A stretch of DNA of 64,000 nt from Dudresnaya verticillata (lineage: Eukaryota): contig OZ374560.1 in assembly GCA_977862235.1 (NCBI GenBank), positions 2,480,001-2,544,000 of the forward strand, written 5' to 3'. This document shows positions 22,320-62,959 of this stretch, piece by piece (positions within the stretch are counted from its first letter, which is position 1; every line of letters begins with the position of its first letter). The translations under genes were made by a program, and so were the position numbers. The notes beneath the pieces are model-generated. The model worked only from the letters and a program-made list of their open reading frames with translations. It was not told the origin of the DNA and ran no database searches.

Positions 22320-22323
22320 AACT
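22310..22323 (-). promoter_or_regulatory. Copia primer-binding site of the half-tRNA-iMet type, overlapping the gag start codon
   Basis: AGTTATGGGCCCAG lies directly after the LTR-terminal CA and resembles the GGTTATGGGCCCAG PBS of Drosophila copia; its ATG begins gag (MGPD). Confidence 0.7.
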
Positions 22324-25300: not shown

Positions 25301-25522
25301 AAGACATAGAACAGCACTTAGGATTATGCATTATGTAGAGAGAAGCGAAGCATTCACAACTATGCATTCTGGTTACTGAGCTCAGGACGCGGCTACATAA
25401 GGCCACTTCACAGACGATTGCCGGAGTCTCAGGCATGTCTATTTCTCGTGCTCCCACGAGAAATTCCCCCTCGACGCAGGGCGGTGGCACCTTCTAGGCA
25501 GTACGAACGAAGTACTGTGAGG

Positions 25523-30740: not shown

Positions 30741-31232
30741 TCGTTTTCAGGGTCGGCCCCTTTTTACTACCTCATCCGCAAGTCGTCGTTCGGACCTTCC
30801 CACGGGACGAGAATTCCCCGTGTAAGAATCCAAGGAACTACTTCCTGAGGGTGAAATCCTAGTCGGCCAAGTGTCGACGGTTTCTCAGCTTCATATCAAG
30901 CTTCGAAGTTGCGTCAAATTCGAGGCAAGCAACGGCCACCGCTTCGGCGGTTTTTAATCGTGTACAAGGAACAAGATCCGGGTCGTGGAGTGACGCCCCT
31001 TCAAGGAACTCTTCCTGCAGGTTATCGTAATACCTGTCATCAAAAAAAATACGTCTGTATACGGGCTGTGCGGGCGCGCGCGCTGGGAGTTCCACGCGGA
31101 CAGAATCGCCCGTAACCCCGAGAACTACGGTTCTGAGAAGTTTGCCATCCTAGGGAGAAGTTCCCCGATTAGTGCAACCACAGGACCGAATCCTACGTTT
31201 TAAAGGTTGTCGATAACAACCTCTTTTAGAAG

Positions 31233-39743: not shown

Positions 39744-42062
39744 CTAATCCGAAAGGAGGTCAATGACCTCGTCATCGCCAAGGGGCGGGTTAGGTACAGA
39801 AGGCGCCCGCGTCGTCACGATGCGGCGCACCTCGCGGAAGATCCGCTGACCCTGGCCACGACGCGGTCCACGGCCCCGGCGAGTACCCTCCATTGTCGTT
39901 CCTTGAGCCTCGTTGGCTGTCGTCGGGTCCACCTCCATCGGCGCAACATCACCCTCCACAGGAGCCAACTCCTCCTCTTCCTTGAGCACCAACTCGGTTT
40001 TCACGAGCACTTCGTCGGTAGGCTGCAAAGCCTCATCGGCTTGACCGGGAGCCAGCGGCGTAGATGCCCTCTCCTCCACTTGGGGAGAGTCACCAGTCAA
40101 AGACTTCGCAGGCGTCTCGAGTGACGCAGGTGCTGTGACCGATGCAGCCGAAGGGGGCGGCCCTGAGGGGGCCCCAACAGCCACCTCGGCTGTGGGGCGG
40201 TTAGCCGACGCGGACCCCGACTGTGGGTTATTCCCAGCGGGCGCGCCGCTAACGGTAGGAATCTGATGTGGAACCACTGAGCGGAGTGGGACTCCAACTC
40301 GAGAAGCCGATGGCTGGGAAGGAGGTGCCACGACTCGCGGAGCGATGTTGGACGCGCTAGCTCCAGCTGTGGCAAGGGGCTCCTCACGCGGAACCTTTGA
40401 CACATCAGCCGCGGTGGCTTCCCTCGCGTCGATAAGCGGAAGGGGCGCAGAAGAGCCTTGAGCTGAAGAACCCGGCTTACCGTAGCCGATGCCGCGGCGA
40501 ACCTTAGAGCCAGGCTCTTTCTTGATTTCCACTCCAGGCTCACCTTCAGCCTTGATTCCGCCCAGCGGGGGCAACTTATTCAGGTGAGTCAAAAGGCGGT
40601 CAACCGGACCTGGAGTTCCTATCCAATGAGCCTCATACTCGGCTAACACATCCTCAACCCAGTCAGCTAGACTGTTAAGGTTGAGGGAGTAGATGCCCCA
40701 ATGTGCAGCAAGGCGAATAGCCAACCCACGGCGGCCAAATAGATCGCGGATCTCGGCATCAGCCCGGTGGTGGTGCGTCAGCACCGGGGCGTATGGCCCC
40801 TGCGGCTCCCCATCGACAGTGTTGTCGAAGGGGGGCACCTCAGCAGGGTGCTTAGGCCCTTCATCGCGCCAACGCACACTCACCCAACCTTTGGTATAAC
40901 CAGTGCGGCGCTCGCCCTCATCCAGCTGGATGGGTTCACCCTCGGTGGGTAGCGGAGCCATCAAATAGTCCGGAAGGACTGGGTGCCACTTGACGGCGTC
41001 GAAGTCAACCCAATCGCCACGGTCGTACACCGGCGTCAGGTGGCCAGTGTTCTCAGGCAGATGCCTATTGCGTTTCGAAACGCCGCTCCAGCGAATACGC
41101 TCCACAAAGACCAAGAGTTGGTCCAAGTCTGAGGCGTCGGCCGAAGTGGCGGTGAAGGCAGCAGCGCTTATAGAACGGATGGCCCCACGAAGCTGGGCGC
41201 TGATGAAGTATAACAAGCCCTGACGGGCTTCGTAGACGAATACTTGCGTCACTAGCACGATCCACTCATGGCGAAAGATGGACCATAAGACGCTATCGTC
41301 TGCGTTGACATCCATCATCTCCAATCCGAGATACGCAATGATGGTGGGCGTGCCGACGGGCATGGAGTAAGACACCTCCATCTCGGCATGGTCCCCTGCG
41401 ACTTGAGGGTACTTCACCCTATAGAACTCCGGACGGATAGAGGTCACCTCTTGACAGTGGGCCGGGACATAACACCCCGTGCGATGTCGGTTGCGACGCT
41501 CGAAGCGTATCAGGTCGGGCGGCAAGGCCGTTTGTGGGTTGTCCAGAGCAAACTTGAAATTGGACGAATCGTCCCACCGGACCACCCGAGCCGTGGTATA
41601 AGGGTAGTTGTCCCTACCACTGCGGATCAGCGGGCGCCCGTGGGCCACCATGCCCAGGTCGAACTCACCGACGTTATGGACGTGTTGCATTTGCTCCAGC
41701 TCATAATTGAGCTTGTTACACAAGGTGGCTGTGTAGCGCACCTCGTGGCGGAAGCGCGGGTGCGCTAAGTCCCACTGCCACGGACCCGTAAGGGCGGGCA
41801 GACGACGGGTCATGCCGGTCAGTAGCGCCAAACGCGCCCGAGCATGGGAATTCCAAGTGCGGCGTTGTGCCTGCCGAGCTCCATGCCGACGGATGTCGGT
41901 GCGATCAGCGCCAGCACGTGCTTTGAGATGCGCGAGGTCGGTGCGCACCCGCCAGTCGCGGCTCTCCTTGACCGTGAAAGGCACTCCTGCCTCATCCACT
42001 TCGATGCCCAGCACACCGGTGCTTGAGCCAACGGCCCCATAAGCCATGTGGCTATGGCTCAT
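39744..42062 (-). CDS. Antisense accessory ORF (772 aa) of the Gypsy element, unknown function
   Basis: Uninterrupted ATG-initiated ORF between pol and the 3' LTR; Trp/Tyr/His-rich, globular-looking first ~500 aa and an Ala/Pro/Glu-rich tail. Confidence 0.75.
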   Translation of the reverse strand: MSHSHMAYGAVGSSTGVLGIEVDEAGVPFTVKESRDWRVRTDLAHLKARAGADRTDIRRHGARQAQRRTWNSHARARLALLTGMTRRLPALTGPWQWDLAHPRFRHEVRYTATLCNKLNYELEQMQHVHNVGEFDLGMVAHGRPLIRSGRDNYPYTTARVVRWDDSSNFKFALDNPQTALPPDLIRFERRNRHRTGCYVPAHCQEVTSIRPEFYRVKYPQVAGDHAEMEVSYSMPVGTPTIIAYLGLEMMDVNADDSVLWSIFRHEWIVLVTQVFVYEARQGLLYFISAQLRGAIRSISAAAFTATSADASDLDQLLVFVERIRWSGVSKRNRHLPENTGHLTPVYDRGDWVDFDAVKWHPVLPDYLMAPLPTEGEPIQLDEGERRTGYTKGWVSVRWRDEGPKHPAEVPPFDNTVDGEPQGPYAPVLTHHHRADAEIRDLFGRRGLAIRLAAHWGIYSLNLNSLADWVEDVLAEYEAHWIGTPGPVDRLLTHLNKLPPLGGIKAEGEPGVEIKKEPGSKVRRGIGYGKPGSSAQGSSAPLPLIDAREATAADVSKVPREEPLATAGASASNIAPRVVAPPSQPSASRVGVPLRSVVPHQIPTVSGAPAGNNPQSGSASANRPTAEVAVGAPSGPPPSAASVTAPASLETPAKSLTGDSPQVEERASTPLAPGQADEALQPTDEVLVKTELVLKEEEELAPVEGDVAPMEVDPTTANEAQGTTMEGTRRGRGPRRGQGQRIFREVRRIVTTRAPSVPNPPLGDDEVIDLLSD

Positions 42063-42608
42063 CTTGGTGCCACGGGGTGAACAGGTCTCCTATCCAGCCA
42101 CAATGGCTATTCTTGGCTATTTGGCTATCGTGCACGTGACGGCCCGGCCGTAGGAAGAGGTGCACGGGTGGCGACAGGGTACTGCGGGTCCCGCTACTGC
42201 GATGTGCACAGACCGCCGCAACGGCAGGGGGATGCGAAACCTGGATTGGTCGTAGCCGGGCGCAAGGCGCGGACGATCAGCTGAAGATGGTGGTGCGAAG
42301 TGGGGATGTGCACCGGGTACTGTAGCGGAAGCCGCTGTGAAGTCGCTGAAGTATGCAGCCGGTTCGGGCTTTCCGCGCAAAAGCGCAAACTGGTCGTCGG
42401 AATAGTCAAACGGTCGCCGTCGAGACTGGAACGGCGAAATCAGTGATTTGTCACTACTGCGAACGGGTCCACAACGGCTGCCAGTGGCGGAGGTTACAAG
42501 TGAGCCGTCGGCCCAATACACCACTGGGATTTCAAGCTCGCCCAAGACAGGGCCAATAGAAACAGCCTTGCAGGCTTCGCGGGTCTCTCAGCCTTAACGA
42601 GGGGACCG

Positions 42609-43258
42609 TGTGGAAGAATGAGCCGCAGCAGGAGTGCTGGCGCACTGTAAGTCATTTGTGCGCATCAAGGTGTAAGACGCCCACGCGCATCAAGCTGTAA
42701 GGCGCGCGCAAGCACCGTGCGCTATACGAGCGATGGGCCTCGCTGGCGTCCCGGCTGGCACCAAACCTGATGGAAAATTGCCATTGGGTAATTAGTTGTG
42801 GCCGCTCACGCGGCCTGACGTGGTACTACCAATAATCCGTATTGATAACTGACAACAGTAAACAGTATAATTAGATTAATAATGACAGTTAGAATAGCTT
42901 AGAATAGCTCATAGGAGGTAAGAGAATTTTCAGCTCTGTATACTTAATAGGCCCCTGAGTAGCAGGGGTCTCCTGAATAGAACCTACGGTGGGTTTCGCG
43001 TCTTTACCCTGTTTCTGGAATTCACGGAATTACCGTAACCTCCCTTTCAGGTTTTTTACGAGCCTTGCCTCCACACGACGGTTGCTCTGTGCGAGCTGGG
43101 TGGCGCCGCCCCTTTTCCCCCTTTTCCCTTAGGCTCTGTGCCTTTCAAAGTCTCTACGAACCTTTTCCCGAGCTACCCAAGCTAGTGTGTTGTACACCGT
43201 CAGGACAGCTGTCCTTGCCGGTTGGCGGGTTTCTGCCTTGACGGGCCATACTACTACA
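42609..43258 (+). repeat. 3' LTR of the family A element
   Basis: Direct repeat of 30079-30721, followed by TSD CTATT. Confidence 0.95.
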
Positions 43259-44560: not shown

Positions 44561-47500
44561 ATGGTGGACTCTGTGATTTCTCTCGTCGAGACCACTATCA
44601 AGGTTGTTCAGCACATTCGTAATAGTCTTGAAGCTCGCAAACAAAACGCAACATCCTTCGTGACGATAGCCAATGGCATTCAACGTATTCGCGTGGCTTA
44701 TCAAGACTTTCGCAACAACCACCACCTCTCCGCCATCCACGACGACATCAGCAGCCACATTAGAGCAGAGTTGGAAATGGTCCAGCGCCATTTGAAGGCA
44801 CTTTCGCAGCAGGTAGACAAACGAAAGCCTTTACGCTCGTTGCTAGGCGGCATCGAAGCTCGTGAGGCGATCATAAAGGTACAATCCCTTGTGACAGGGC
44901 TAGAAAGACACTTGGATGCTTGTCGGCTCATGGTGAAACACTTTCAGATCCATGACTCCCGCCTCAGTGAAATATATGAACTGTTGCACAAGCATGTCAT
45001 CAAAGACGTTCCGGGCTCTTCCTCTGCGGGAGACATGACGGCACAAGATGAGGTGGTCCTAATCGATGCCACTTCTGCGCGACTTCAAGGAACAGATCCG
45101 AGCAGCCCGAGTAGTCCCAGTCAGACCTCGCCCCACTCCCCAGGCCCGACAATGAGTATACAATCTGAACAGCTTGATAAGGAGGAGGAGGACGAGATCC
45201 AATTCATATCATCGCTGCCCATGGCGATGAAGTTGATAGCGAAAAGCGATGTCCCGGAAGATGTGAAACGGAAGCTACAGCAGAAGATAGACGACTTCCA
45301 GACTCGGTGGGAGTTGAAGTTTGACGACTTGGTGTTTGAGAAAGGCAGAAGGGGAGGATGGGTCGAGTTGGGTGAAGGCGGTTTCAGCAGGGTGTACAAA
45401 GCGAAGCTCCGCCAAGGTGAAACATTCCTGGAAGTGGCAGTCAAAGAGCTAAAGGTAAAGAAGCCGGAACTGGAGAAGTTCAAGCCAAAGTTTTTGCGTG
45501 AGGTGCACGGCCTGATTCAGTACCGGCATCGCTGTATCTTGGAGGCACATGGGGCCATCTGGGCGAAGAGCGATGAGACAGAAGACGGTCACAACCCGAT
45601 GATTGTTCTAGAACGCATGACCTGCAGCCTCCACGAAGCGATTCAAGAATGCTGGGCAGCGGTGGAGGACATGGCTGTGAGAAAGGGTATCGCGCTGGAT
45701 GTGGCTGCTGCGCTCGCACATCTGCACGAGAAGAGCGTTGTTCACAGGGACGTGAAGCCTGAAAACGTGTTGTTGCGTGTTAGGGACGGTGAGGTTGTGA
45801 GGCCTGCCAAGCTGTGCGACTTTGGCGTATCGCGAGAAGTGCAGGTGACAAAGCAGATGGAAACGTATACGCTGAGGAGTAGTAGAGGAGCTGCGTCAGG
45901 GACGGTTGTTTTCATGCCACCAGAGGTGCTCAAGGACCAAAGAAAGGCACCGACGCGTCCGTCGTGGGATGTGTGGAGCTTTGGACTACTTTTATGTTTC
46001 CTGGGGGGTGGGGCGACGTCCTTTTCGGAACTGGATTTCATTAACGCCCTGGGTCTAGCAAGAGAAGATCAGCTTGGAGCAGTCGCACGAGGGTGGGCGG
46101 ACTCCATTGGGGATGAGGCGATGAGGACGGCTGCGTTGCGTTGTTTACGGTCGAAGTGGAAGGAGCGTTGCACTATGGCTGATGTGGTGGCGATTATTTC
46201 GCAGGGTATACCAGGGGTCGGGAATGATGCTCCTAGTGACGCTGAATCAGCCATGGCAGATGTGGTGGGGACGATCTCGCAGGATGTACCAGAGCTCAGG
46301 GTTGATACTCCGAGTGACGCAGAATTTGCCATGGCGGATGTGGTGGGGATAGTCTCGCGGAATGTACCAGGGGTCGGGGTTGATGCTCCGAGTGACACGG
46401 AATTTGCCAGCCTTCTTCTCGACCCACGATGGATGACCATAGATAGCAGTCCTTTGGACATCTCTGGGTGGAAGGAGAATGTGAATGAGTTGCGGTGGGC
46501 GTGCTTGACAAATGGGTTGGTTGGTGAAGAAGATTTCGATGCGGGCATGAAGTTGCTGCGGGCAGCAGCGCGAGAGAGCTGGCCGTTCATTTTTCGAAAC
46601 CCGAGGGAGCTGATGTTCCAGATGCAGTCGCGGTTGGTGGACTCATGCGATGAGGCATGGCTCGTGCGGCGGTACCTTGAGACGGCCAGCAAGGTGTCCC
46701 CCACACCTCGAGTTCGATCATTAACTCGGTGCTGGAACATTCCTGGTGGTCGACAAGAGATGGAAATCCCATGTGCGGATAGTGTAGACTGCTTCGCTGT
46801 GACAGGGGATGAAGGAAAAGTTGTGGCAGGAATTGGATACAAAGTAGTGCTCATCGACTTGGAAAGCAGTGTTGTCATCCGCGAGTACGTCGGCCACGAC
46901 AGTACGGTGGATTGCGTGGCGGTGACGCCAGACGGGCGGCACGTCGTGTCCGGGTCGCGGGACGAGACGTTGCGGGTGTGGGAGTTGGGGAGCGGCAAGC
47001 CCGTGGGGGAGCCGTTGCGCGGTCACACGAATTGGGTGGAGTGCGTGGCGGTGACGCCAGACGGGCGGCACGTCGTGTCCGGGTCGTGGGACGAGACGTT
47101 GCGGGTGTGGGAGTTGGGGAGCGGCAAGCCCGTGGGGGAGCCGCTGCGCGGTCACACGCGTAAGGTCGTGTGCGTGGCGGTGACGCCAGACGGGCGGCAC
47201 GTCGTGTCCGGGTCGCGGGACGAGACGTTGCGGGTGTGGGAGTTGGGGAGCGGCAAGCCCGTGGGGGAGCCGTTGCGCGGTCACACGAATTGGGTGGAGT
47301 GCGTGGCGGTGACGCCAGACGGGCGGCACGTCGTGTCCGGGTCGTGGGACGAGACGTTGCGGGTGTGGGAGTTGGGGAGCGGCAAGCCCGTGGGGGAGCC
47401 GTTGCGCGGTCACACGGATGGGGTGCGGTGCGTGGCAGTGACGCCAGACGGGCGGCACGTCGTGTCCGGGTCGTGGGACAAGACGTTGCGGGTGTGGGAG

Positions 47501-48418
47501 TTGGGGAGCGGCAAGCCCGTGGGGGAGCCGTTGCGCGGTCACACGCGTTGGGTGTGGTGCGTGGCGGTGACGCCAGACGGGCGGCACGTCGTGTCCGGGT
47601 CGTGGGACAAGACGTTGCGGGTGTGGGAGTTGGGGAGCGGCAAGCCCGTGGGGGAGCCGTTGCGCGGCCACGAGAATAGGGTAAATTGCGTGGCGGTGAC
47701 GCCAGACGGGCGGCACGTCGTGTCCGGGTCGCGGGACGAGACGTTGCGGGTGTGGGAGTTGGGGAGCGGCAAGCCCGTGGGGGAGCCGTTGCGCGGTCAC
47801 ACGAGTTCGATGCACTGCGTGGCGGTGACCCCAGACGGGCGGCACGTCGTGTCCGGGTCGCGGGACAAGACGTTGCGGGTGTGGGAGTTGGGGAGCGGCA
47901 AGCCCGTGGGGGAGCCGTTGCGCGGTCACACGGATTGGGTGCGGTGCGTGGCGGTGACGCCAGACGGGCGGCACGTCGTGTCCGGGTCGGGGGACAAGAC
48001 GTTGCGGGTGTGGGAGTTGGGGAGCGGCAAGCCCGTGGGCGAACCGAAAGCGTTTTCGCCATCTGTTGCGAGAATTGGATGTTTTGGGGCGAGTACTGTG
48101 AAGGCTCGTGATTGGAATGGGAATGAGCGTTACTTTGAGGTGAGTGGAAATGGTCTGCGGGAGATTGATGCGGCTGTTGGAAGAGTTCGTGAGAGTGAAG
48201 TGCTGCGCGGGAGTGGAAGCCATCGGAGCGGGTCTGCAGCGGAGGCTGTCGTACGGGTCTCGGGCCGGTCAGTGCGCCTCGGGCAGGACGGGCCGATTCT
48301 CGCGACCCTTCCGGCAGCTTTGGCCGAGCCTGGGACGTGGGACTACAATGCTGCGGAAGGTCGAGTGGTCGTCGGGCTCCAAGACGGACAGGTGTTGGTG
48401 TTGGAGGTGGAGACGTAA
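44561..48418 (+). CDS. Paralogue 1: MLKL/HeLo-like four-helix bundle + Ser/Thr (TKL-like) kinase + APAF-1-like helical segment + 9 near-identical WD40 repeats (1285 aa)
   Basis: ATG (MVDSV) is conserved in all three copies; GEGGFSRVY, VAVKEL, HRDVKPEN, DFG, MPPE and DVWSFG; 43-aa GH...WE repeats. Confidence 0.92.
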   Translation: MVDSVISLVETTIKVVQHIRNSLEARKQNATSFVTIANGIQRIRVAYQDFRNNHHLSAIHDDISSHIRAELEMVQRHLKALSQQVDKRKPLRSLLGGIEAREAIIKVQSLVTGLERHLDACRLMVKHFQIHDSRLSEIYELLHKHVIKDVPGSSSAGDMTAQDEVVLIDATSARLQGTDPSSPSSPSQTSPHSPGPTMSIQSEQLDKEEEDEIQFISSLPMAMKLIAKSDVPEDVKRKLQQKIDDFQTRWELKFDDLVFEKGRRGGWVELGEGGFSRVYKAKLRQGETFLEVAVKELKVKKPELEKFKPKFLREVHGLIQYRHRCILEAHGAIWAKSDETEDGHNPMIVLERMTCSLHEAIQECWAAVEDMAVRKGIALDVAAALAHLHEKSVVHRDVKPENVLLRVRDGEVVRPAKLCDFGVSREVQVTKQMETYTLRSSRGAASGTVVFMPPEVLKDQRKAPTRPSWDVWSFGLLLCFLGGGATSFSELDFINALGLAREDQLGAVARGWADSIGDEAMRTAALRCLRSKWKERCTMADVVAIISQGIPGVGNDAPSDAESAMADVVGTISQDVPELRVDTPSDAEFAMADVVGIVSRNVPGVGVDAPSDTEFASLLLDPRWMTIDSSPLDISGWKENVNELRWACLTNGLVGEEDFDAGMKLLRAAARESWPFIFRNPRELMFQMQSRLVDSCDEAWLVRRYLETASKVSPTPRVRSLTRCWNIPGGRQEMEIPCADSVDCFAVTGDEGKVVAGIGYKVVLIDLESSVVIREYVGHDSTVDCVAVTPDGRHVVSGSRDETLRVWELGSGKPVGEPLRGHTNWVECVAVTPDGRHVVSGSWDETLRVWELGSGKPVGEPLRGHTRKVVCVAVTPDGRHVVSGSRDETLRVWELGSGKPVGEPLRGHTNWVECVAVTPDGRHVVSGSWDETLRVWELGSGKPVGEPLRGHTDGVRCVAVTPDGRHVVSGSWDKTLRVWELGSGKPVGEPLRGHTRWVWCVAVTPDGRHVVSGSWDKTLRVWELGSGKPVGEPLRGHENRVNCVAVTPDGRHVVSGSRDETLRVWELGSGKPVGEPLRGHTSSMHCVAVTPDGRHVVSGSRDKTLRVWELGSGKPVGEPLRGHTDWVRCVAVTPDGRHVVSGSGDKTLRVWELGSGKPVGEPKAFSPSVARIGCFGASTVKARDWNGNERYFEVSGNGLREIDAAVGRVRESEVLRGSGSHRSGSAAEAVVRVSGRSVRLGQDGPILATLPAALAEPGTWDYNAAEGRVVVGLQDGQVLVLEVET
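46175..46408 (+). repeat. 3 x 78-bp (26-aa) coding tandem repeat MADVV..PSDAE(S/F)A directly after the kinase (also at 53333-53566 and 60959-61192)
   Basis: Units start at 46175, 46253 and 46331. Confidence 0.9.
46892..48046 (+). repeat. WD40 array, 9 x 129 bp
   Basis: Invariant framework CVAVTPDGRHVVSGSxDxTLRVWELGSGKPVGEPLRGH with variable residues after GH and around SxDx. Confidence 0.97.
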
Positions 48419-51400
48419 AGGAAAGCAAAGGCGATGTCGAGTGCGGAGAAAGTGTGTTGCGCCATTGCAGAGAAGAGGAAGAAACTCAGCGACGGGGAGC
48501 GCGGCGCTCTAAGAAGTGGCAGACGATGCGTTCCGCGTTCTGCGCGCTGATTGGGCGTGCAGCGCGCGTCTGGACACGTGCGTCGTTTTGTGTGGGCCGT
48601 TGCGCGTCCCTCGTCAGAGCGCACGCGACCGCCCTTCGGCGCCACGCCTCAAGTGGGAACGGTTTAGACATTGTGACGCACAAAGGAGTTGATCCACAAC
48701 ACCGCTGCTGTTGCAGTTTCGATCAAGAGACTTGGTCTGTCGGACAACTATGCACAATGGCTTCGCTCTCGGTATGGATTGTTCATTGATGACTGGGCGA
48801 GTAGTGAGAATCGGTGCGCATTGGTCATACTCGACCAAGTCATTCACTGCCTATGGAAGGATTTGGGAAGCTGCCCACATACTGGAAACCGAATAAGCGA
48901 CCAGACGTGTTGTACACAAATGAGCTCCATTGTGTTTGATAGCATGTGGAAAGAGCGAGGACACAGCAACTAGCACACCCACAAAGTATGCAATACTACC
49001 AGTCGGCATTATATTGTGATGCTTGATTTTAATGGTTGTTTAGGGTGGTCTTGTGCGGGCGACGATGGCCCATGGGCAAGCACACCGGCAAGCTACAGTT
49101 GTTAAGGTTATTCTTGATGACATCCATTAAAAGTATCCTATGACCGGTAAAGGGGGTGAAGCTATCCTTCGGAAAGGGATTAGTTACGTGGGGACCGACT
49201 GGGTTGTGGGTGGGAAGTAGACAGGGGAAACGCGTGGCTGCAGGCGTCCCGGATAGATGAGATTGTGTCAGAGATGGCGCAGATATCAGCGGCGAGTGGT
49301 TCTGGGAGCGACAGGGCTTGGAGAGATTGGGCGAGGGGCTGGACCTTCTGTGTTGAATTGGATTGCTTTATTATGGTAAGGTTAGCACGATTCTGGGACT
49401 CATTGTAATTCTTGTCCGTGCTATATGCGCATTTAGCTTAAATGAATGACAAATAGGGAAGCGTTGAGTATATAACATGGTCTCCAATGGATCCCGACCT
49501 GCAGGCCTCTCAAAACAATGGGCTTTCCCTATCTTGGCTGCGCTTATCTCAAGACCAGTAGCACAGCTGTAGCACAGTACAGTTACCCATCGCACCCAAA
49601 GGCACGGGCAATCGCAAAGAGCTGATTTCAGAACCTCGATTCACATTGCAGTAGCAAAAGCCTTTGTCCCCAATCTGGCGTAGCTTATAAAACACCACAG
49701 TTACGAAGCCGTTAAGAAGGATTCCAAAGTTGCTTGTTTCATGCATTTGGCCGGAGTATCACAGGTGCCAGAATAAAGCGAGCAAACCATGCTTTGAATC
49801 GTAATTAACAAACAAAGCGCAACGCACAGTCGTCGGAGATTCACAGTTGCAATGCTCCCTCGGAATGTAATCGGGTCTCCGATACTGAAAATCTCGACAT
49901 CCAAGCACGGCGGGCGAGGCGGTGGCCGAAATACGTGATGTTGTTACTGTTTTGTATTTGCGTCATGAGGAGTCTCGCAACATCGCTTACTGATGCAATG
50001 TAAAGTGTTGAGTTACGTAAGTGTCGTGTGCTACGGAAGCATGGGGCGCGCAAGAGACACCGCACGTACAGGGAACAGACGCGTTTGCTTTGCTATAATG
50101 GCTCTTAACGAAGAAATTAATGGAAAATTCTATCGAATGCTCTTTATTGCGAGATGATGCCTTAGACAAAAACCCGATCATCAGACTCACTGCTGTGCCT
50201 CGGTTATCAGCAAGTAAGTGTTCAGGTCTATTCTGACCTACTGGGAGATGCGAGAGACGACCACCTCGCTGATCTTAACTCAGCTTGATCCCTCCATGGC
50301 AAGCCCAACATGCACAGGGACGCTTCTGCGCTCGATTGTATGTGTCAACCCATCTCGGATAACCCTGGAGCACACCTGGACTCCAATCTTTCTCGCAGCA
50401 GCTTCAAGATGCTTAGTCTCTAGTCCGTATGATGTTGCCTCTTGCATTTAATCGCTGCGGGAAGCATACTCTCCTGACCCGTCCAAACTCACTCGTAAAT
50501 GAATGCGTTGCATTGCTGCCAAGAGGCATAGGTTGGATAGCCGGCGTCCGCCCCGTTGTACAACACGGACAGAACGTCTTGCACACGTCAATTACAAACG
50601 CGTCAAAACAGTTACCGATTTTCCAAATTACGCTCTGCCGCCGGTCGCCGAAACGAAAGTGCGCACGCAGGTCTGTGTCTTTCGTTTCTCCGCAGCTGCC
50701 GTATGTGTGTCGAGAGCACCATGGCGCTCTCAAGGCTGCGTCAACACCAACCGCCACCCACCCGCGCCGAACGCCGTCCGTCGTCCGCACCAACATCTGC
50801 CACGCTGCTGCTCGTGGAGCTCAGCGGCGCCGCCTGTCGACAGCGCCCGCTAGCGGCGGACAAGTTGCGCGCGAAAGCCGCGCCTCCGGGACGCTTACTG
50901 TGGGAACCACAAGCATGCGCAAGAAGTGTCTGCCGCAGCGTCGGGCACAACTTGTGCCTGCCTCGCGAGAACGAGATTTGCCGGCGCGTAGTGTATTGCG
51001 CGATGGTGGACGGGGAGATGTGTGTGCATTCAACGCAGTTGGTCCGGTTGGGTACCGTATGAAGTGCTTGCGCGAGCAATTGTTTGGTGATGCCAACAGT
51101 GCAGAACCGTCCCTGGCAATGTCCCACCGTCAAGCGCAGAACGCCAATGGCTGACTGATTCTGCTGTGCTTGTTGTCGCTCAAGGGCTGCTTCCGCACTT
51201 ATGTACTGTACAACAAGTTTGCCCGTTTGTGCTGATTCGGAGCAGTTCCGACCAATCCCGACAACCCTTTCGACCGCATTTCTTGGCTGTCCTTGCGACT
51301 CGGCGGGAGAAGTGTGCAAGCAGATGAAGTCATACAGCTTCCACTGACCCGCTTTGTTGCCCCCCGCAGGCGAGTCTGTGACTGAGAATACATCTGAGCT

Positions 51401-51715
51401 GTGTGACCACCAACGGCGGTGTCGACATCACAACCGATTATCAGAAAAACCGCGGAGAACTCACAGACTCGTACGCACCCGACCCGGGCGCAATACCCTT
51501 GGTGGATACTGGCGTGAACGACGCGAGCCCACAAGCGTTTTCTGCTTCACAAGAACTTTCCAAGTACGAAACAGCAACGGTCTGTTCCCCGTCAACCGCC
51601 GCCCAAACTCCGGCTTTTGAGTCGTTTCCATTATCACCAAGCTCCCCAACTGCCCGATCGAGTACAAGACCAAATTCCGTTGCTTCTTTCTGTTGACTTT
51701 TTTTGCCTTCACACG

Positions 51716-54700
51716 ATGGTGGACTCTGTGGTTTCTCTCCTCGAGACCAGTATCAAGGTTGTTCAGCACATTCGTAATAGTCTTGAAGCTCGCAAACAAA
51801 ACGCAACATCCTTCGTGACGATAGCCGATGGCATTGAACGTATTCGCTTGGGTTATCAAGACTTTCGCAAGAACCACTACCTCTCCGCCATCCATGACGA
51901 TGTCAGCAGGCACATCAGCGCAGAGTTGGAAATGGTTCAGCGCCTTTTGGAGGGACTTTCGCAGCAGATAGACAATCGAAGGCCTTTCCGCTCGTTGCTA
52001 GGCAGCATCGAAGCTCGTGAGGCGATCATACAGGTAAAATCCTTTGTGACAGGGCTAGAAAGACACTTGGATGCTTGTCGGCTCATGGTGAAACACTTTC
52101 AGATCCATGACTCCCGCCTCAGTGAAATATATGAACTGTTGCGCAAGCATGTCATCAAAGACGTTCCGAGCTCTTCCTCTGCGGGAGGGGTTACGGTACA
52201 AGAAGAGGTGACGGTAATCGACGCTACCTCTGCGCGACTTCAAGGAACAAATCCAAGCAGCTCGAGTAGTCCCAGTCAGACCTCGCCCCACTCCCCAGGC
52301 CCGACAATGAGTATACAATCTGAACAGCTTGATAAGGAGGAGGAGGACGAGATCCAGTTCATATCATCGCTGCCCATGGCGATGAAGTTGATAGCGAAAA
52401 GCGATGTCCCGGAAGATGTGAAACGGACGCTACAGCAGAAGATAGACGACTTCCAGACTCGGTGGGAGTTGAAGTTTGACGACTTGGTGTTTGAGAAAGA
52501 CAGAAGGGGGTGGGTCGAGTTGGGTGAAGGTGGTTTCAGCAGGGTGTACAAAGCGAAGCTCCGCCAAGGTGAAACATTCCTGGAAGTGGCAGTCAAAGAG
52601 CTAAAGGTAGAGGAGTCGGAACTGGAGAAGTTCAAGCCAAATTTTTTGCGTGAGATGCACGGCCTGATTCAGTACCGGCATCGTTGTATCTTGGAGGCAC
52701 ATGGGGCCATCTGGGCGAGGATCGGTGGGACTGAAGACGGTATCGTGCACAACCCGATGATTGTTCTAGAACGTATGACATGCAGCCTCCACAAAGCGAT
52801 TCAAAAGCACTGGGCAGCGGTGGAGGACATGGGTGTGAGAAAGGGTATCGCGCTGGATGTGGCTGCCGCGCTCGCTCATCTGCACGAGAAGAGCGTTGTT
52901 CACCGGGACGTGAAGCCTGAAAACGTGTTGTTGCGTGTTAGGGACGGTGAGGTTGTGAGGCCTGCCAAGCTGTGCGACTTTGGCGTATCGCGAGAAGTGC
53001 AGGTGACAAAGCAGATGGAGACGTATACGCTGAGGAGTAGTAGAGGAGCTGCGTCAGGGACGGTTGTTTTCATGCCACCAGAGGTGCTCAAGGACCAAAG
53101 AAAGGCACCGACGCGTCCGTCGTGGGATGTGTGGAGCTTTGGACTACTTTTATGTTTCCTGGGGGGTGGGGAGACGCCCTTTTCGGAACTGGATTTCATT
53201 AACGCCCCGAGTCTAGCAAGAGAGGGTCGGCTTGGAGCAGTCGCACGAGAATGGGCGGACTCCATTGGGGATGAGGCGATGAGGACGGCTGCGTTGCGTT
53301 GTTTACGGTCGAAGTGGAAGGAGCGTTGCACTATGGCTGATGTGGTGGCGATTATTTCGCAGGGTATACCAGGGGTCGGGAATGATGCTCCTAGTGACGC
53401 TGAATCAGCCATGGCAGATGTGGTGGGGACGATCTCGCAGGATGTACCAGAGCTCAGGGTTGATACTCCGAGTGACGCAGAATTTGCCATGGCGGATGTG
53501 GTGGGGATAGTCTCGCGGAATGTACCAGGGGTCGGGGTTGATGCTCCGAAAGATGTGGAATTTGCCAACGTTCTTCTTGACCCACGATGGATGACTATAG
53601 ATACCAGTCCTTTGGACATCCCTGGGTGGAAGGAGAATGTGAATGAGTTGCGGTGGGCGTGCTTGGCAAATGGGTTGGTTGGTGAAGAAGATTTCGATGC
53701 GGGCATGAAGTTGCTGCGGTCAGCAGCGCGAGAGAGCTGGCCGTTCATTTTTCGAAACCCGAGGGAGCTGATGTTCCAGATGCAGTCGCGATTGGTGGAC
53801 TCAAGCGATGAGTCATGGCTCGTACGGCGGTACCTTGAGACGGCTAGCAAGGTGTCCCCCACACCCCGAGTTCGATCATTATCTCGGTGCTGGAACATTC
53901 CTGGTGGTCGACAAGAGATGGAAATCCCATGTGCGGACATTGTAAACAGCTTGGCTGTGACAGGGGATGAAGGAAAAGTTGTGGCAGGCATTGGGAACAA
54001 AGTAGTGCTCATGGACTTGGAAAGCAGTGTTGTCATCCGCGAGTACATCGGCCACGAGAATAGGGTGAATTGCGTGGCGGTGACGCCAGACGGGCGGCAC
54101 GTCGTGTCCGGGTCGTGGGACAAGACGTTGCGGGTGTGGGAGTTGGGGAGCGGCAAGCCCGTGGGGGAGCCGTTGCGCGGTCACACGTATCGGGTGCATT
54201 GCGTGGCGGTGACGCCAGACGGGCGGCACGTCGTGTCCGGGTCATGGGACAAGACGTTGCGGGTGTGGGAGTTGGGGAGCGGCAAGGCCGTGGGGGAGCC
54301 GTTGCGCGGTCACAAGAATTTTGTGTGGTGCGTGGCGGTGACGCCAGACGGGCGGCACGTCGTGTCCGGGTCGGGGGACAAGACGTTACGGGTGTGGGAG
54401 TTGGGGAGCGGCAAGCCCGTGGGGGAGCCGTTGCGCGGTCACACGAATTGGGTGGAGTGCGTGGCGGTGACGCCAGACGGGCGGCACGTCGTGTCCGGGT
54501 CGCGGGACGAGACGTTGCGGGTGTGGGAGTTGGGGAGCGGCAAGCCCGTGGGGGAGCCGTTGCGCGGTCACACGGATGGGGTGCGGTGCGTGGCAGTGAC
54601 GCCAGACGGGCGGCACGTCGTGTCCGGGTCGTGGGACAAGACGTTGCGGGTGTGGGAGTTGGGGAGCGGCAAGCCCGTGGGGGAGCCGTTGCGCGGTCAC

Positions 54701-55705
54701 ACGCGTTGGGTGTGGTGCGTGGCGGTGACGCCAGACGGGCGGCACGTCGTGTCCGGGTCGTGGGACAAGACGTTGCGGGTGTGGGAGTTGGGGAGCGGCA
54801 AGCCCGTGGGGGAGCCGTTGCGCGGCCACGAGAATAGGGTAAATTGCGTGGCGGTGACGCCAGACGGGCGGCACGTCGTGTCCGGGTCGCGGGACGAGAC
54901 GTTGCGGGTGTGGGAGTTGGGGAGCGGCAAGCCCGTGGGGGAGCCGTTGCGCGGTCACAAGAATTTTGTGTGGTGCGTGGCGGTGACGCCAGACGGGCGG
55001 CACGTCGTGTCCGGGTCGGGGGACAAGACGTTACGGGTGTGGGAGTTGGGGAGCGGCAAGCCCGTGGGGGAGCCGTTGCGCGGTCACACGAATTTTGTGT
55101 GGTGCGTGGCGGTGACGCCAGACGGGCGGCACGTCGTGTCCGGGTCGGGGGACAAGACGTTACGGGTGTGGGAGTTGGGGAGCGGCAAGCCCGTGGGGGA
55201 GCCGTTGCGCGGTCACACGAATTGGGTGGAGTGCGTGGCGGTGACGCCAGACGGGCGGCACGTCGTGTCCGGGTCGGAAGATAAGACGTTGCGGGTGTGG
55301 GAGTTGGGGAGCGGCAAGCCCGTGGGCGAACCGAAGGCGTTTTCGTCATGGGTTGTGAGTGTTAGATGTTTTGGGGCGAGTACTGTGAAGGCTCGTGATG
55401 AGGATGGGAATGAGCGTTACTTTGAGGTTAGTGGAAATGGTCTGCGGGAGATTGAGGCGGCTGTTGGAAGAGTTCGTGAGAGTGAAGTGCTGCGCGGGAG
55501 TGGAAGCCATCGGAGCGGGTCTGCAGCGGAGGCTGTCGTACGGGTCTCGGGGCGGTCAGTGCGCCTCGGGCAGGACGGGCCGATTCTCGCGACCCTTCCG
55601 GCAGCTTTGGCCGAGCCTGGGACGTGGGACTACAATGCTGCGGAAGGTCGACTGGTCGTCGGGCTGAAAAGCGGACGTGTGTTGGTGTTGGAGGTGGAGA
55701 CGTAA
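51716..55705 (+). CDS. Paralogue 2: same architecture, 10 WD40 repeats (1329 aa)
   Basis: Intact ORF, highly similar to paralogue 1, with all kinase motifs intact. Confidence 0.92.
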   Translation: MVDSVVSLLETSIKVVQHIRNSLEARKQNATSFVTIADGIERIRLGYQDFRKNHYLSAIHDDVSRHISAELEMVQRLLEGLSQQIDNRRPFRSLLGSIEAREAIIQVKSFVTGLERHLDACRLMVKHFQIHDSRLSEIYELLRKHVIKDVPSSSSAGGVTVQEEVTVIDATSARLQGTNPSSSSSPSQTSPHSPGPTMSIQSEQLDKEEEDEIQFISSLPMAMKLIAKSDVPEDVKRTLQQKIDDFQTRWELKFDDLVFEKDRRGWVELGEGGFSRVYKAKLRQGETFLEVAVKELKVEESELEKFKPNFLREMHGLIQYRHRCILEAHGAIWARIGGTEDGIVHNPMIVLERMTCSLHKAIQKHWAAVEDMGVRKGIALDVAAALAHLHEKSVVHRDVKPENVLLRVRDGEVVRPAKLCDFGVSREVQVTKQMETYTLRSSRGAASGTVVFMPPEVLKDQRKAPTRPSWDVWSFGLLLCFLGGGETPFSELDFINAPSLAREGRLGAVAREWADSIGDEAMRTAALRCLRSKWKERCTMADVVAIISQGIPGVGNDAPSDAESAMADVVGTISQDVPELRVDTPSDAEFAMADVVGIVSRNVPGVGVDAPKDVEFANVLLDPRWMTIDTSPLDIPGWKENVNELRWACLANGLVGEEDFDAGMKLLRSAARESWPFIFRNPRELMFQMQSRLVDSSDESWLVRRYLETASKVSPTPRVRSLSRCWNIPGGRQEMEIPCADIVNSLAVTGDEGKVVAGIGNKVVLMDLESSVVIREYIGHENRVNCVAVTPDGRHVVSGSWDKTLRVWELGSGKPVGEPLRGHTYRVHCVAVTPDGRHVVSGSWDKTLRVWELGSGKAVGEPLRGHKNFVWCVAVTPDGRHVVSGSGDKTLRVWELGSGKPVGEPLRGHTNWVECVAVTPDGRHVVSGSRDETLRVWELGSGKPVGEPLRGHTDGVRCVAVTPDGRHVVSGSWDKTLRVWELGSGKPVGEPLRGHTRWVWCVAVTPDGRHVVSGSWDKTLRVWELGSGKPVGEPLRGHENRVNCVAVTPDGRHVVSGSRDETLRVWELGSGKPVGEPLRGHKNFVWCVAVTPDGRHVVSGSGDKTLRVWELGSGKPVGEPLRGHTNFVWCVAVTPDGRHVVSGSGDKTLRVWELGSGKPVGEPLRGHTNWVECVAVTPDGRHVVSGSEDKTLRVWELGSGKPVGEPKAFSSWVVSVRCFGASTVKARDEDGNERYFEVSGNGLREIEAAVGRVRESEVLRGSGSHRSGSAAEAVVRVSGRSVRLGQDGPILATLPAALAEPGTWDYNAAEGRLVVGLKSGRVLVLEVET
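54050..55333 (+). repeat. WD40 array, 10 x 129 bp
   Basis: Same framework as 46892-48046. Confidence 0.97.
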
Positions 55706-59344: not shown

Positions 59345-62300
59345 ATGGTGGACTCTGTGATTTCTCTCCTCGAGACCAGTATCAAGGTTGTTCAGTACAT
59401 TCGTAATAGTCTTGAAGCTCGGAAACAAAACGCAGCATCCTTCGAGACGATAGGCAAGGGCATTGAACGTATTCGGTCCGGTTATCAAGTCTTTCGCAAG
59501 AACGACTACCTCTCTGCCATCCACGACGATGTCAGCAGGCACATCAGCGCAGAGTTGGAAACAGTGCAGCGCCATTTGAAGGGGCTTGCGGAGCGGGTAG
59601 ACAAACGAAAACCTTTCCGCTCCTTGCTAGGCAGCATCGATGCTCTGGAGGCGATCATTCGAGTGGAATCCCATGTGGCGACGCTCGAAAGACACTTGGA
59701 TACTTGTGGGCTCATGGTGAAACACTTCCAGATCCAGGACACTCATCTCAGAGAAATATACCATCTTTTGCACAAGCATGTTATCAAGGACGTTCCGAGT
59801 TCTTCCTCTCCGGGAGGCGTGACGGCACAAGATGAGGTGGTCGTAATCGATGCCACTTCTGCGCGACTACGAGGAACAGGTCCGAGCAGCCCGAGTAGTC
59901 CCAGTCAGGAACCACCCCACTCTCCAGGCTCGGCAAGGAATTTGCGATCTGAACAGCTTGATAAGGAGGAGGACGATGAGATCCAATTCATATCATCGCT
60001 GCCCATGGCGATGAAGTTGATAGCGAAAAGTGATGTCCCGGAATCTGTAAGACGAGAACTACAGCAGAAGATAAAGGATTTCCAGACTCGATGGGAATTG
60101 AAGTTTGATGACCTGATGTTTGAGAAAGGTAGAAGAGGAGGATGGGTTGAGTTGGGCGAAGGTGGTTTCAGTAGGGTATACAAGGCGAAGCTCCGCCAAG
60201 GTGAAACATTCTTGGAAGTGGCAGTCAAAGAGCTGAAGGTAGAGGAGTCGGAACTGGAGAAGTTCAAGCCAAGGTTCTTGCGTGAGGTGCACGCCCTTAT
60301 TCAGTACCGGCATCGCTGTATCTTGAAGACACATGGGGCTATCTGGGCGAGGATCGATGGGACAGAAGACGGTCACAACCCGATGATTGTTCTAGAACGC
60401 ATGACATGCAGCCTCCACGAAGCGATTCAAAAGCGCTGGGCAGCTGTGGAGGACATGGGTGTGAGAAAGGGTATCGCGCTGGAGGTGGCAACTGCGCTAG
60501 CTCATCTGCACGAGAAGAGCGTTGTTCACAGGGACGTGAAGCCTGAAAACGTGTTGTTGCGTGTTAGGGACGGTGAGGTTGTGAGGCCTGCCAAGCTGTG
60601 CGACTTTGGTGTGTCACGGGAAGTGCAGGTAACGAAGCAGATGGGGACATATGCGCTGAGGAGTAGTAGAGGAACTGCGTCTGGGACGGTTGTTTACATG
60701 CCACCGGAGGTCTTCAAGGATCAAAGAAGGGCGCCGACTCGTCCGTCGTGGGATGTGTGGAGCTTTGGACTTCTTTTATGCTTCCTGGGGGGTGGGGCGA
60801 CGCCCTTTTCGGAACTGGATTTCATTAACGCTCCGAGTCTAGCAAGAGAAGATCAGCACGGAGCGGTCGCACGAGGGTGGGCGGACTCTATTGGGGATGA
60901 GGAGATGAGGACGGCAGCGCTGCGTTGTTTACGGACGCATTGGGAGGAACGTTGTACTATGGCGGATATGGTGCGGATTTTTGCACAGTATGTACCAGGG
61001 GTCGGGAATGATGCTCCTAGTGACGCTGAATCAGCCATGGCAGATGTGGTGGGGACGATCTCGCAGGATGTACCAGAGCTCACGGTTGATACTCCGAGTG
61101 ACGCAGAATTTGCCATGGCGGATGTGGTGGGGATAGTCTCGCGGAATGTACCAGGGGTCGGGGTTGATGCTCCGAAAGATGTGGAATTTGCCAACTTTCT
61201 TCTTGACCCACGATGGATGACCATAGATACCAGTCCTTTGAACATCCCTGGGTGGAAGGAGAATGTGAACGAGTTGCGCAGGGCGTGCTTGGCAAATGGG
61301 TTAGTTGGTGAAGAAGGTTTCGATGCGGGTATGAAGTTGCTGCGGTCAGCAGCGCAAGAGAGCTGGCCGTTCATTGTTCGAAACCCGAGGGAGCTGATGT
61401 TCCAGATGCAGTCGCGGTTGGTGGACTCATGCGATGAGTCATGGCTCGTGCGGCGGTACCTTGAGACGGCTAGCAAGGTGTCCCCCACACCTCGAGTTAG
61501 ATCATTGACTCGGTGCTGGAACATTCCTGGTGGTCGACAAGAGATGGAAATCCCATGTGCGGACAGTGCACGCAGCATTGCTTTAACAGCGGATGGAGGT
61601 AAAGTTGTGGCAGGCATTGGGAAGAAAGTAGTGCTCATCGACTTGGAAAGCAGTGTTGTCATCCGCGAGTACGTCGGCCACGAGGATCAGGTGCAGTGCG
61701 TGGCGGTGACCGCAGATGGGCGGCACGTCGTGTCCGGGTCGTCGGACGATACGTTGCGGGTGTGGGAGTTGGGGAGCGGCAAGCCCGTGGGGGAGCCGTG
61801 GCGCGGCCACACGGGGTGGGTGTGGTGCGTGGCGGTGAGTCCAGACGGGCGACACGTCGTGTCCGGATCTGTGGACGAGACGTTGCGGGTGTGGGAGTTG
61901 GGGAGCGGCAAGCCCGTGGGTGAGCCGTTACTCGGTCACACAAATTGGGTGTGGTGTGTGGCGGTGACGCCAGACGGGCGGCACATCGTGTCAGGTTCGG
62001 AAGACAAGACGTTGCGGGTGTGGAAGTTGGAGAGCGGCAAGCCCGTGGGGGAGCCGTTGCGCGGCCACAAGGATCATGTGCAGTGCGTGGCGGTGACCTC
62101 AGACGGGCAGCACGTCGTGTCCGGGTCGCGAGACAAGTCATTGCAGGTGTGGGAGTTGGGGAGCGGAAAGCCGGTGGGTGAGCCGTTGCGCGGTCACACG
62201 GGGTGGGTGGAGTGCGTGACGGTGAGTCCAGACGGGCGGCACGTTGTGTCCGGATCTGCGGACGAGACGTTGCGCGTGTGGGAGCTGGGGAGCGGCAAGC

Positions 62301-62959
62301 CCATGGGGGAGCCGTTGCGTGGTCACACAGATTGGGTGTGGTGCGTAGCAGTGACCCCAAATGGGCGGCACGTCTTATCCGGATCTGTGGACGAGACGTT
62401 GCGGGTGTGGGAGTTGGAGAGCGGCAAGGCTGTGGGTGAGCCGTTCCGCAGTCACATGGATTATGTGCAGTGCGTGGCAGTGAGCCCAGACGGGCGGCAC
62501 GTCATGTCCGGTTCGCGGGACAAGACGTTGCGGGTGTGGGAGTTGGGGAGCGGCAAGGCCGTGGGAGAACCGAAAGCGTTCTCGTCACCTGTTCTGAGTG
62601 TTGGATGTTTTGGGGCAAGTACTGTGAAGGCTCGTGATCAGGATGGGAATGAGCGTTACTTTGAGATGAGAGGAAATGGTCTGCGGAAGATACATGCGGC
62701 TGTTGGAAGAACTCGTGAGAGGAAAGCGCGGCGCGGGAGGACCGGGAGCGGAATGCATCGGAGTGAGTCTGAAGCGGAGGATGACATACGGGTCTCGGGC
62801 CGGTCTGTGCGCCTCGGTCAGGACGGACCGATTCTCGCAACCCTTCCGGCAGCTTTGGGCTCGTCCTGGCAACAGGCGTGGGACTACAACGCTGTAGAGG
62901 GTCGACTGGTCGTCGGGCTGCAAAGCGGACAGGTGTTGGTGTTGGAGGTGGAGACGTAA
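59345..62959 (+). CDS. Paralogue 3: same architecture, 7 more diverged WD40 repeats (1204 aa)
   Basis: Intact ORF with kinase motifs intact; the repeats carry framework substitutions. Confidence 0.92.
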   Translation: MVDSVISLLETSIKVVQYIRNSLEARKQNAASFETIGKGIERIRSGYQVFRKNDYLSAIHDDVSRHISAELETVQRHLKGLAERVDKRKPFRSLLGSIDALEAIIRVESHVATLERHLDTCGLMVKHFQIQDTHLREIYHLLHKHVIKDVPSSSSPGGVTAQDEVVVIDATSARLRGTGPSSPSSPSQEPPHSPGSARNLRSEQLDKEEDDEIQFISSLPMAMKLIAKSDVPESVRRELQQKIKDFQTRWELKFDDLMFEKGRRGGWVELGEGGFSRVYKAKLRQGETFLEVAVKELKVEESELEKFKPRFLREVHALIQYRHRCILKTHGAIWARIDGTEDGHNPMIVLERMTCSLHEAIQKRWAAVEDMGVRKGIALEVATALAHLHEKSVVHRDVKPENVLLRVRDGEVVRPAKLCDFGVSREVQVTKQMGTYALRSSRGTASGTVVYMPPEVFKDQRRAPTRPSWDVWSFGLLLCFLGGGATPFSELDFINAPSLAREDQHGAVARGWADSIGDEEMRTAALRCLRTHWEERCTMADMVRIFAQYVPGVGNDAPSDAESAMADVVGTISQDVPELTVDTPSDAEFAMADVVGIVSRNVPGVGVDAPKDVEFANFLLDPRWMTIDTSPLNIPGWKENVNELRRACLANGLVGEEGFDAGMKLLRSAAQESWPFIVRNPRELMFQMQSRLVDSCDESWLVRRYLETASKVSPTPRVRSLTRCWNIPGGRQEMEIPCADSARSIALTADGGKVVAGIGKKVVLIDLESSVVIREYVGHEDQVQCVAVTADGRHVVSGSSDDTLRVWELGSGKPVGEPWRGHTGWVWCVAVSPDGRHVVSGSVDETLRVWELGSGKPVGEPLLGHTNWVWCVAVTPDGRHIVSGSEDKTLRVWKLESGKPVGEPLRGHKDHVQCVAVTSDGQHVVSGSRDKSLQVWELGSGKPVGEPLRGHTGWVECVTVSPDGRHVVSGSADETLRVWELGSGKPMGEPLRGHTDWVWCVAVTPNGRHVLSGSVDETLRVWELESGKAVGEPFRSHMDYVQCVAVSPDGRHVMSGSRDKTLRVWELGSGKAVGEPKAFSSPVLSVGCFGASTVKARDQDGNERYFEMRGNGLRKIHAAVGRTRERKARRGRTGSGMHRSESEAEDDIRVSGRSVRLGQDGPILATLPAALGSSWQQAWDYNAVEGRLVVGLQSGQVLVLEVET
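61676..62572 (+). repeat. WD40 array, 7 x 129 bp, less homogenised
   Basis: 129-bp period with synonymous and framework changes in most units. Confidence 0.95.

Follow-up and report, generated by a model that had tools for sequence, protein, structure and literature searches.

Three tandem genes joining an intact kinase to homogenised, hypervariable WD40 repeats as candidate non-self receptors

We analysed a window of 64,000 nucleotides from Dudresnaya verticillata (assembly GCA_977862235.1, contig OZ374560.1, positions 2,480,001 to 2,544,000 of the forward strand), by which we mean the whole 64-kb stretch, and found that its last 20 kb hold three genes, intact and free of introns, arranged in tandem on the + strand, each with an array of WD40 units towards its C-terminus. 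In genes 1 and 2, these units are almost identical at the DNA level except at six codons, which are predicted to lie on the propeller's top face and in which nonsynonymous change exceeds synonymous change. This pattern very probably reflects the joint action of concerted evolution, diversifying selection, and recombination both inside single repeats and from one repeat to another, and we place at roughly 0.6 the probability that the three genes encode diversifying non-self receptors, likely intracellular ones. All three share one order of domains, consisting of a four-helix bundle, a linker, a kinase, 26-amino-acid (aa) repeats, an arm resembling APAF1_C, and the WD40 array, as listed here in window coordinates:

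44561..48418, + strand: gene 1, an intact open reading frame (ORF) of 1285 aa from the ATG common to all three copies
44561..45001, + strand: N-terminal four-helix bundle of gene 1 (aa 1-147), from helices predicted by AlphaFold2 (AF2)
45356..46204, + strand: protein kinase domain of gene 1 (residues 266-548), Pfam Pkinase at E = 3e-35
46175..46409, + strand: three 78-bp (26-aa) linker repeats of gene 1, homogenised across the three genes
46382..46732, + strand: divergent arm of gene 1 (aa 608-724) resembling APAF1_C (helical domain 2, HD2), directly before the propeller
46892..48046, + strand: WD40 array of gene 1, nine near-identical units, variable at codons 3, 4, 5, 7, 23 and 25
47346..47801, + strand: 456-bp block from the end of unit 4 to unit 7 of gene 1, identical to 54504-54959 in gene 2
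48047..48415, + strand: C-terminal tail of gene 1, about three cryptic propeller blades, with differences between copies clustered in equivalent loops
51716..55705, + strand: gene 2, an intact ORF of 1329 aa with the architecture of gene 1
54050..55333, + strand: WD40 array of gene 2, ten units at 129-bp spacing
59345..62959, + strand: gene 3, an intact ORF of 1204 aa with the architecture of gene 1, outside the coordinates of an earlier, sequence-only reading of this DNA (the original prediction)
61676..62572, + strand: WD40 array of gene 3, seven more diverged units with the same codons most variable

All 26 WD40 units (9, 10 and 7 in genes 1, 2 and 3) are exactly 129 bp long and in frame, with no insertion or deletion (indel). 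When codons are numbered within the unit such that GH occupies 1 and 2, the framework is 98.1-98.5% identical in DNA among the units of genes 1 and 2, and identity over the whole unit is 93% in both genes. The units of gene 3 are far less homogenised, with 87.5% identity in the framework and 82% over the whole unit. The original prediction had correctly counted 26 units and read the residue codes of the 19 in genes 1 and 2, all of which match the sequence, but the remaining seven belong to gene 3, beyond its coordinates. Its interval of WD40 repeats, 46892..55333, does take in both arrays, together with about 6 kb of non-repeat DNA (the gene 1 tail, the spacer and the front of gene 2), and the framework it called invariant is better described as near-invariant.

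To locate the changes, we made a minimum-change count over codons 1-38 in all 19 units of genes 1 and 2, excluding codons 39-43 because the last unit departs from the repeat there. Six codons (3, 4, 5, 7, 23 and 25) held 24 of the 26 amino-acid changes, with 24 nonsynonymous and 4 synonymous changes, compared with 2 nonsynonymous and 8 synonymous ones in the remaining 32 codons (Fisher p = 0.0004). When 26 changes were placed at random 20,000 times, the six richest codons never held more than 19. The pairwise proportion of nonsynonymous differences (pN) at the six codons was 0.416 in genes 1 and 2, while the synonymous proportion (pS) was 0.110 within these codons, 0.056 for the framework and 0.062 for the whole unit; framework pN was 0.003. 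The check proposed in the original prediction, a unit alignment with substitution rates and a structural model, thus gave pN above pS at these codons and allowed the sites to be placed on an AF2 model.

The manner of change differs among the six codons. The original prediction attributed the variation to multi-nucleotide substitutions, which we found at codons 3, 4, 5 and 7, but at codon 23 it is mostly the first base that varies, and codon 25 switches between E and K by a change of one base. A claimed richness in W, R, Y, N and D was likewise upheld in part, as W and R account for 27 and 15 of the 78 residues at positions 5, 7 and 23 over the 26 units and position 4 often carries N or D, but Y and D each appear only once at the former three positions. 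Altogether, there are 21 distinct codes in the 26 units, and 14 of the 19 units in genes 1 and 2 are distinct.

The variable codons coincide with positions already described in other WD40 proteins. Wu et al. place top-face hotspots at R1-2, R1 and D-1, spaced 2 and 16 apart (PMC3419727), and spacing and context map them to codons 5, 7 and 23, where variation in the unit is greatest. In the fungal proteins HET-E and HET-D, Paoletti et al. report four selected codons in the pairs 7/9 and 25/27 (PMC1805685), which equal 5/7 and 23/25 here. Further work on HET-E/D uses seven variable positions, 10, 11, 12, 14, 30, 32 and 39 (PMC12222747), and our six codons with an offset of 7 give six of the seven (10, 11, 12, 14, 30 and 32). 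To set the offsets to HET-E/D numbering, we aligned the units on their spacing and on the conserved residues V and D.

We then placed the sites, by secondary structure, on an AF2 model built from 20 sequences and covering aa 605-1329 of gene 2 (mean predicted local distance difference test, pLDDT, 76.5). Codons 3-5 fall in the d-a loop, codon 7 at the start of strand a and codons 23-25 in the b-c turn, so that the hotspot rule and the modelled loops agree with the top face foreseen in the original prediction. The model contains a first propeller of seven blades, made of one divergent blade and units 1-6 (model residues 126-422), and at lower confidence a second propeller made of units 7-10 and about three cryptic blades. 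Gene 2 is therefore predicted to form a double propeller, with 13 blades expected for gene 1 and 11 for gene 3. The 126-aa tail is not repeated, and between genes 1 and 2 it shows 13 amino-acid differences and four synonymous changes. Twelve of the 13 lie in the first loop and strand (six), the next turn (two) and the last turn (four). Since these non-repeated blades vary on the same face as the units, selection is favoured over a mutator specific to the repeats.

Together, these comparisons of codons and models support diversifying selection at the predicted top-face codons of genes 1 and 2. In gene 3, the same codons are hot on an older background (concentration p = 0.005). Several points weigh against our reading: in gene 3 alone, the ratio of nonsynonymous to synonymous rates is 1.7 and not significant (p = 0.074); the six codons were picked from the same data, though they match positions published beforehand; WD40 units are not independent of one another; and four-gamete violations arise from recombination and from recurrent change alike.

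Exchange among repeats is visible within units, between genes and outside the arrays. The first cluster of variable residues, TNWVE, occurs in four units with identical DNA and is joined to three different second clusters, which bears out the earlier proposal of recombination within repeats; among ten unit pairs identical in the first cluster, five differ in the second. Genes 1 and 2 share 456 identical bases spanning three whole units, and framework identity between them (98.3%) equals the level within each gene and exceeds that of their non-repeat parts (about 95%). Recent duplication may also have contributed to the likeness of repeats between genes, by inheritance. A second tract that is identical in genes 1 and 2, 298 bp long, takes in the linker repeats; these, at 46175-46409, 53333-53567 and 60959-61193, show 0-1 differences per 150-bp bin across the genes, with mostly 9-29 differences in the other bins of gene 3. 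Since the linker repeats are near-identical though gene 3 differs by about 12% elsewhere, they are likely a conversion tract, and on the pattern of identity conversion extends beyond the WD40 arrays. Of the sequencing runs searched, one unrelated run of low coverage contained this DNA, with 7% of the words and contigs covering short pieces, and no RNA dataset was listed. A 159-base contig from that run (depth 3) has a unit absent from the window whose listed differences are only at codons 4, 6, 7 and 23, which is only a hint of variation outside the window.

At the DNA level, genes 1 and 2 share about 95% identity, and gene 3 about 86-88% with the others (about 88% with gene 1). The ATG common to the three copies is the likely start, because indels that change the frame between copies lie upstream of it. 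The 5' flank of gene 1 resembles those of genes 2 and 3 up to about position 44130, and genes 2 and 3 are alike for 700 bp further upstream; the promoter of gene 1 may therefore differ from that of the other two. The GC content is about 52%, the genes are long and lack introns, and Gypsy-, Copia- and DIRS-like elements are dense in the window. With the Sel1-bearing kinase relative described below, these traits make a red seaweed the probable host, and a fungus does not seem to fit.

In the kinase, the G-loop, VAVK, alphaC Glu, HRD, DFG, PPE and DVWSFG motifs are intact in all three copies, and pN/pS between copies is 0.2-0.5, indicating purifying selection. We did not find a nucleoside triphosphatase (NTPase) domain in these proteins. 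No NACHT or NB-ARC match appeared among the best 25 of 48-51 Pfam matches per protein, scanning the N-terminal 250 aa and the post-kinase region on their own gave none either, and a Walker A motif (GxxxxGK[ST]) is absent from all three copies. Since the NTPase is lacking, the proteins are not NLRs.

To characterise the region before the propeller, we built a hidden Markov model (HMM) from ten regions preceding repeats, chosen by eye from 115 ORFs in 79 bacterial WD40 loci. Nine of these regions were scanned with Pfam PF17908, of which six scored above the cut-off, two scored below it and one gave no match. The HMM matched the three genes at 10.7-11.9 bits over nearly its full length, compared with maxima of 3.7 bits in 1000 shuffles and 2.2 bits in 162 other frames of the window, and HHalign of the arm against the bacterial set gave 86.7% (E = 4.4e-6, 111 columns). 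In a Foldseek search with the gene 2 model, Apaf-1 took ranks 2-4, and its query TM-scores of 0.52-0.58, across about 820 columns, were the highest in the list. Together, these matches in sequence and model predict that the arm at aa 608-724 is homologous to APAF1_C (HD2). Against this stand the absence of any match of PF17908 itself to the three genes, a reverse search reaching only E = 0.07, an arm match that is weak in bits and involves bacterial loci fetched with a query containing the arm region, and the presence of bacterial APAF1_C-WD40 proteins in the AF2 alignment, a possible bias toward Apaf-1.

Four of the bacterial loci (L095, L096, L103 and L106) each contain two tandem WD40 ORFs, and in L095 and L103 both ORFs begin with the APAF1_C-like region. 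Several such ORFs, also in L107 and L116, begin at this region with no NTPase in the same frame. We also looked for homogenised arrays in these loci by pattern and found none, with a pattern that was probably too strict.

In the N-terminal bundle, single-sequence AF2 predicts helices at 2-25, 31-52, 56-87 and 97-147 with pLDDT of about 50-80; the single-sequence model of aa 1-780 is poor outside the bundle (mean pLDDT 42.5). The first helix is amphipathic (hydrophobic moment 1.6-1.7). In the ESM Atlas, aa 1-147 lie at 0.91-0.92 beside fungal clusters in which 13-95% of members carry the families SesA and PigL_N, the latter of which we take to be Helo_like_N. The best Pfam match of the gene 1 N-terminus is also SesA, below the cut-off (E = 0.072). 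On this evidence, we lean towards placing the bundle in the HeLo/MLKL superfamily. Several results limit this assignment: shuffled proteins reach 0.9 in the Atlas in 4-10 of 100 cases; the N-termini of genes 2 and 3 have no match to Pfam SesA; MLKL, HeLo and plant CC domains are missing among the best 50 of 169 VIA fold matches (Z at least 8), which are generic bundles only; Foldseek with the bundle returned nothing at E 0.001; and MLKL is a pseudokinase in animals and plants, while the kinase here is intact.

Searches for relatives yielded one protein that bears on this assignment. Among 439 matches to aa 1-740, the only real relative was P0001, which has the kinase and pre-kinase helices in common with gene 1 (35%) and terminates in 14 non-homogenised Sel1 repeats. 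This suggests one front module with exchangeable sensors. In the ESM Atlas, the front end of P0001 tends towards MLKL_N, MCAfunc and RPW8 (0.83-0.88), which is a lead only, and there is no significant local alignment between the N-termini of gene 1 and P0001, a further limit on the HeLo/MLKL assignment. No homologue of aa 612-776 was found among 568 candidates, and aa 1-250 retrieved no relative from 1.84 billion representatives, only one spurious tandem-repeat protein. A metagenome scan gave 80 loci, all with generic kinases at 23-40% identity.

These results leave room for an alternative in which the sensor and kinase are the same but the bundle is a coiled coil for oligomerisation or adaptor contacts, and phosphorylation signals without cell death. 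We hold this possible, at odds below even. Fold searches give generic four-helix bundles, solved MLKL and HeLo structures have no sequence match to the bundle, and a kinase with intact motifs under purifying selection fits such a role; on the other hand, two different N-termini, those of gene 1 and P0001, point to the HeLo-like/MLKL superfamily in the Atlas, the first helix is amphipathic, and a low-confidence short helix lies between helices 3 and 4, a trait of MLKL and HeLo-like domains (PMC9815663).

The remaining explanations concern the repeats rather than the bundle. That a young tandem repeat is turning over neutrally, its surface loops under relaxed constraint and its diversity not selected for, is very improbable. 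Highly repetitive WD40 proteins often arise by recent duplication (PMC5587647) and the excess in gene 3 falls short of significance, but relaxation predicts pN no greater than pS, while we found pN to be 3.8 times pS within the same six codons. Moreover, the surface loops TPDG, GSGK and GEP are unchanged across units, and the variation sits at published hotspots. An assembly artefact, in which repeats were collapsed or cross-polished or genes 1 and 2 are haplotypes placed in tandem, is very improbable. It is favoured by arrays that independent reads do not span, by the misassembly of such arrays in short-read assemblies (PMC12222747), and by the 456- and 298-bp identical blocks between genes 1 and 2. 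However, every unit is in frame without indels, most units are distinct, the spacers between the three genes differ from one another, and the change is concentrated at functional codons and in non-repeated blades, unlike artefacts, which could alter the number or order of units but not the variant code. Least probable of all is programmed diversification by somatic shuffling or by targeted mutagenesis of the diversity-generating-retroelement type, for although change is sharply confined to two short clusters and retroelements lie nearby, the majority base at the 24 polymorphic sites is G at 13, A at 5, T at 3 and C at 3, which is not the adenine-directed variation of such targets, the nearby reverse transcriptases (RT) belong to long-terminal-repeat (LTR)-type elements, and no separate template copy exists outside the three genes.

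Retroelements of Gypsy-, Copia- and DIRS-like types, along with a broken helicase, lie in the first 43 kb of the window. A nearly intact Gypsy element (31230-38431) has gag-like, RT, RNase H and integrase regions and a weak chromodomain match, and its pol has relatives at 60-77% in other assemblies. An interrupted Copia-type element (RVT_2) lies at 17809-22358 (- strand), and an RT fragment at 25322-27045 (+ strand) is presumably DIRS-like. The helicase, of the Upf1/Sen1 type (AAA_11, AAA_12; 11947-13745, + strand), is split over three frames, which may reflect an intron, a pseudogene or transposon cargo. Finally, a 676-bp inverted repeat at 90% identity (27548-28215 and 42597-43258) flanks 14 kb that include the Gypsy element and a 781-aa ORF (39744-42089, - strand) with no Pfam match.

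If the three genes do encode diversifying non-self receptors, unequal crossing-over and gene conversion would add, drop and reshuffle units, and selection would retain many variants of the top face. The sensor, of the Apaf-1/NLR type, would control the kinase and an MLKL/HeLo-like bundle in place of an NTPase. A foreign or allo-specific protein would bind one or both propeller faces, thereby relieving inhibition of the kinase or clustering it, and the kinase would autophosphorylate and signal defence. A recognition role in defence or allorecognition is probable. The bundle could possibly be released to the membrane, in the manner of MLKL and HeLo proteins, but that it kills cells is doubtful. 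In its fullest form, the proposal describes an all-in-one necroptosis-like seaweed receptor, in which a hypervariable Apaf-1-type NLR sensor sits on an MLKL-like bundle and an active kinase, within a module that also accepts Sel1. Here ligand would lead to phosphorylation and membrane rupture with no NTPase switch. We consider this full version unlikely.

Several known systems share parts of this architecture. MLKL and HeLo-like kinases of animals, plants and fungi have an N-terminal four-helix bundle, connecting helices and a kinase fold (PMC12881547, PMC9815663), a likeness in which homology of the bundle is weakly shown. MLKL is a pseudokinase that is activated by RIPK3 and has no sensor of its own, whereas the genes here have intact catalytic motifs and a diversifying C-terminal sensor. 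The four-helix superfamily of MLKL includes the SesA and HeLo-like domains, some of which occur fused to kinases in fungi (PMC4986451, PMC9815663, PMC12881547). Apaf-1-type proteins with NB-ARC, WH, APAF1_C and WD40 occur in cyanobacteria, red algae and animals, and Ulva and other chlorophytes are known to have APAF1_C/WD40 proteins that lack NB-ARC (PMC8891106). They resemble our genes in having a helical arm followed by a double WD40 propeller, but the sections of that source on these proteins mention no kinase or four-helix bundle in front and no hypervariable homogenised repeats (PMC8891106). Bacterial kinase-WD40 proteins of the PkwA type combine a kinase and highly repetitive WD40 units in one chain (PMC5587647), but the kinases are only about 30% alike, and the relevant part of that source reports no bundle or APAF1_C arm, neither of which was searched for there, and does not mention top-face selection.

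For red algae, published lists of candidate receptors comprise WD40, Sel1, NB-ARC with WD40, and TIR with kinase (PMC12115072, PMC6928737). The literature on red algal immunity that we examined offers such lists but describes no mechanism of WD40 receptor diversification. Nor did full-text literature searches show a description of a bundle-kinase-APAF1_C-WD40 fusion, though the supplements on candidate pathogen receptors of the Chondrus crispus and Porphyra umbilicalis genomes may cover the family.

The closest parallel is the HNWD/NWD family of Podospora anserina (HET-E, HET-D, HET-R), in which conserved WD40 units undergo concerted evolution within and between paralogues (PMC1805685, PMC12222747, PMC13449251). 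The variable codons are in the same register, the number of units also varies, and the predicted double propeller of seven and then four plus three cryptic blades has been modelled for HET-E as for gene 2. Of the genes here, 1 and 2 (93%) surpass the internal repeat conservation of over 85% seen in HNWD proteins, while gene 3 (82%) falls short. HNWD proteins differ in having a HET (TIR-like) effector, a NACHT NTPase and 126-bp units, whereas the three genes have no NTPase but a kinase, an APAF1_C-like arm, a helical bundle and 129-bp units. Homogenised repeats are found in 5.6% of repeat proteins without an ATPase compared to 22% of those with one (PMC13449251). The mechanism of diversification is thus that published in 2007 for fungal HNWD genes (PMC1805685), while the wiring of the protein is new. 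The original prediction mentioned neither this precedent nor the domain architecture, the less ordinary side of these genes. If the host is a red seaweed, the fungal mechanism operates at the same codons in another eukaryotic lineage. The genes further hint that a kinase and an MLKL-like bundle can be placed under an NLR sensor with no nucleotide switch between them. If our reading is correct, seaweeds would offer a receptor in which pathogen defence or the recognition of self and non-self can be tested, as well as a natural library of WD40 repeats with its variable positions already located.

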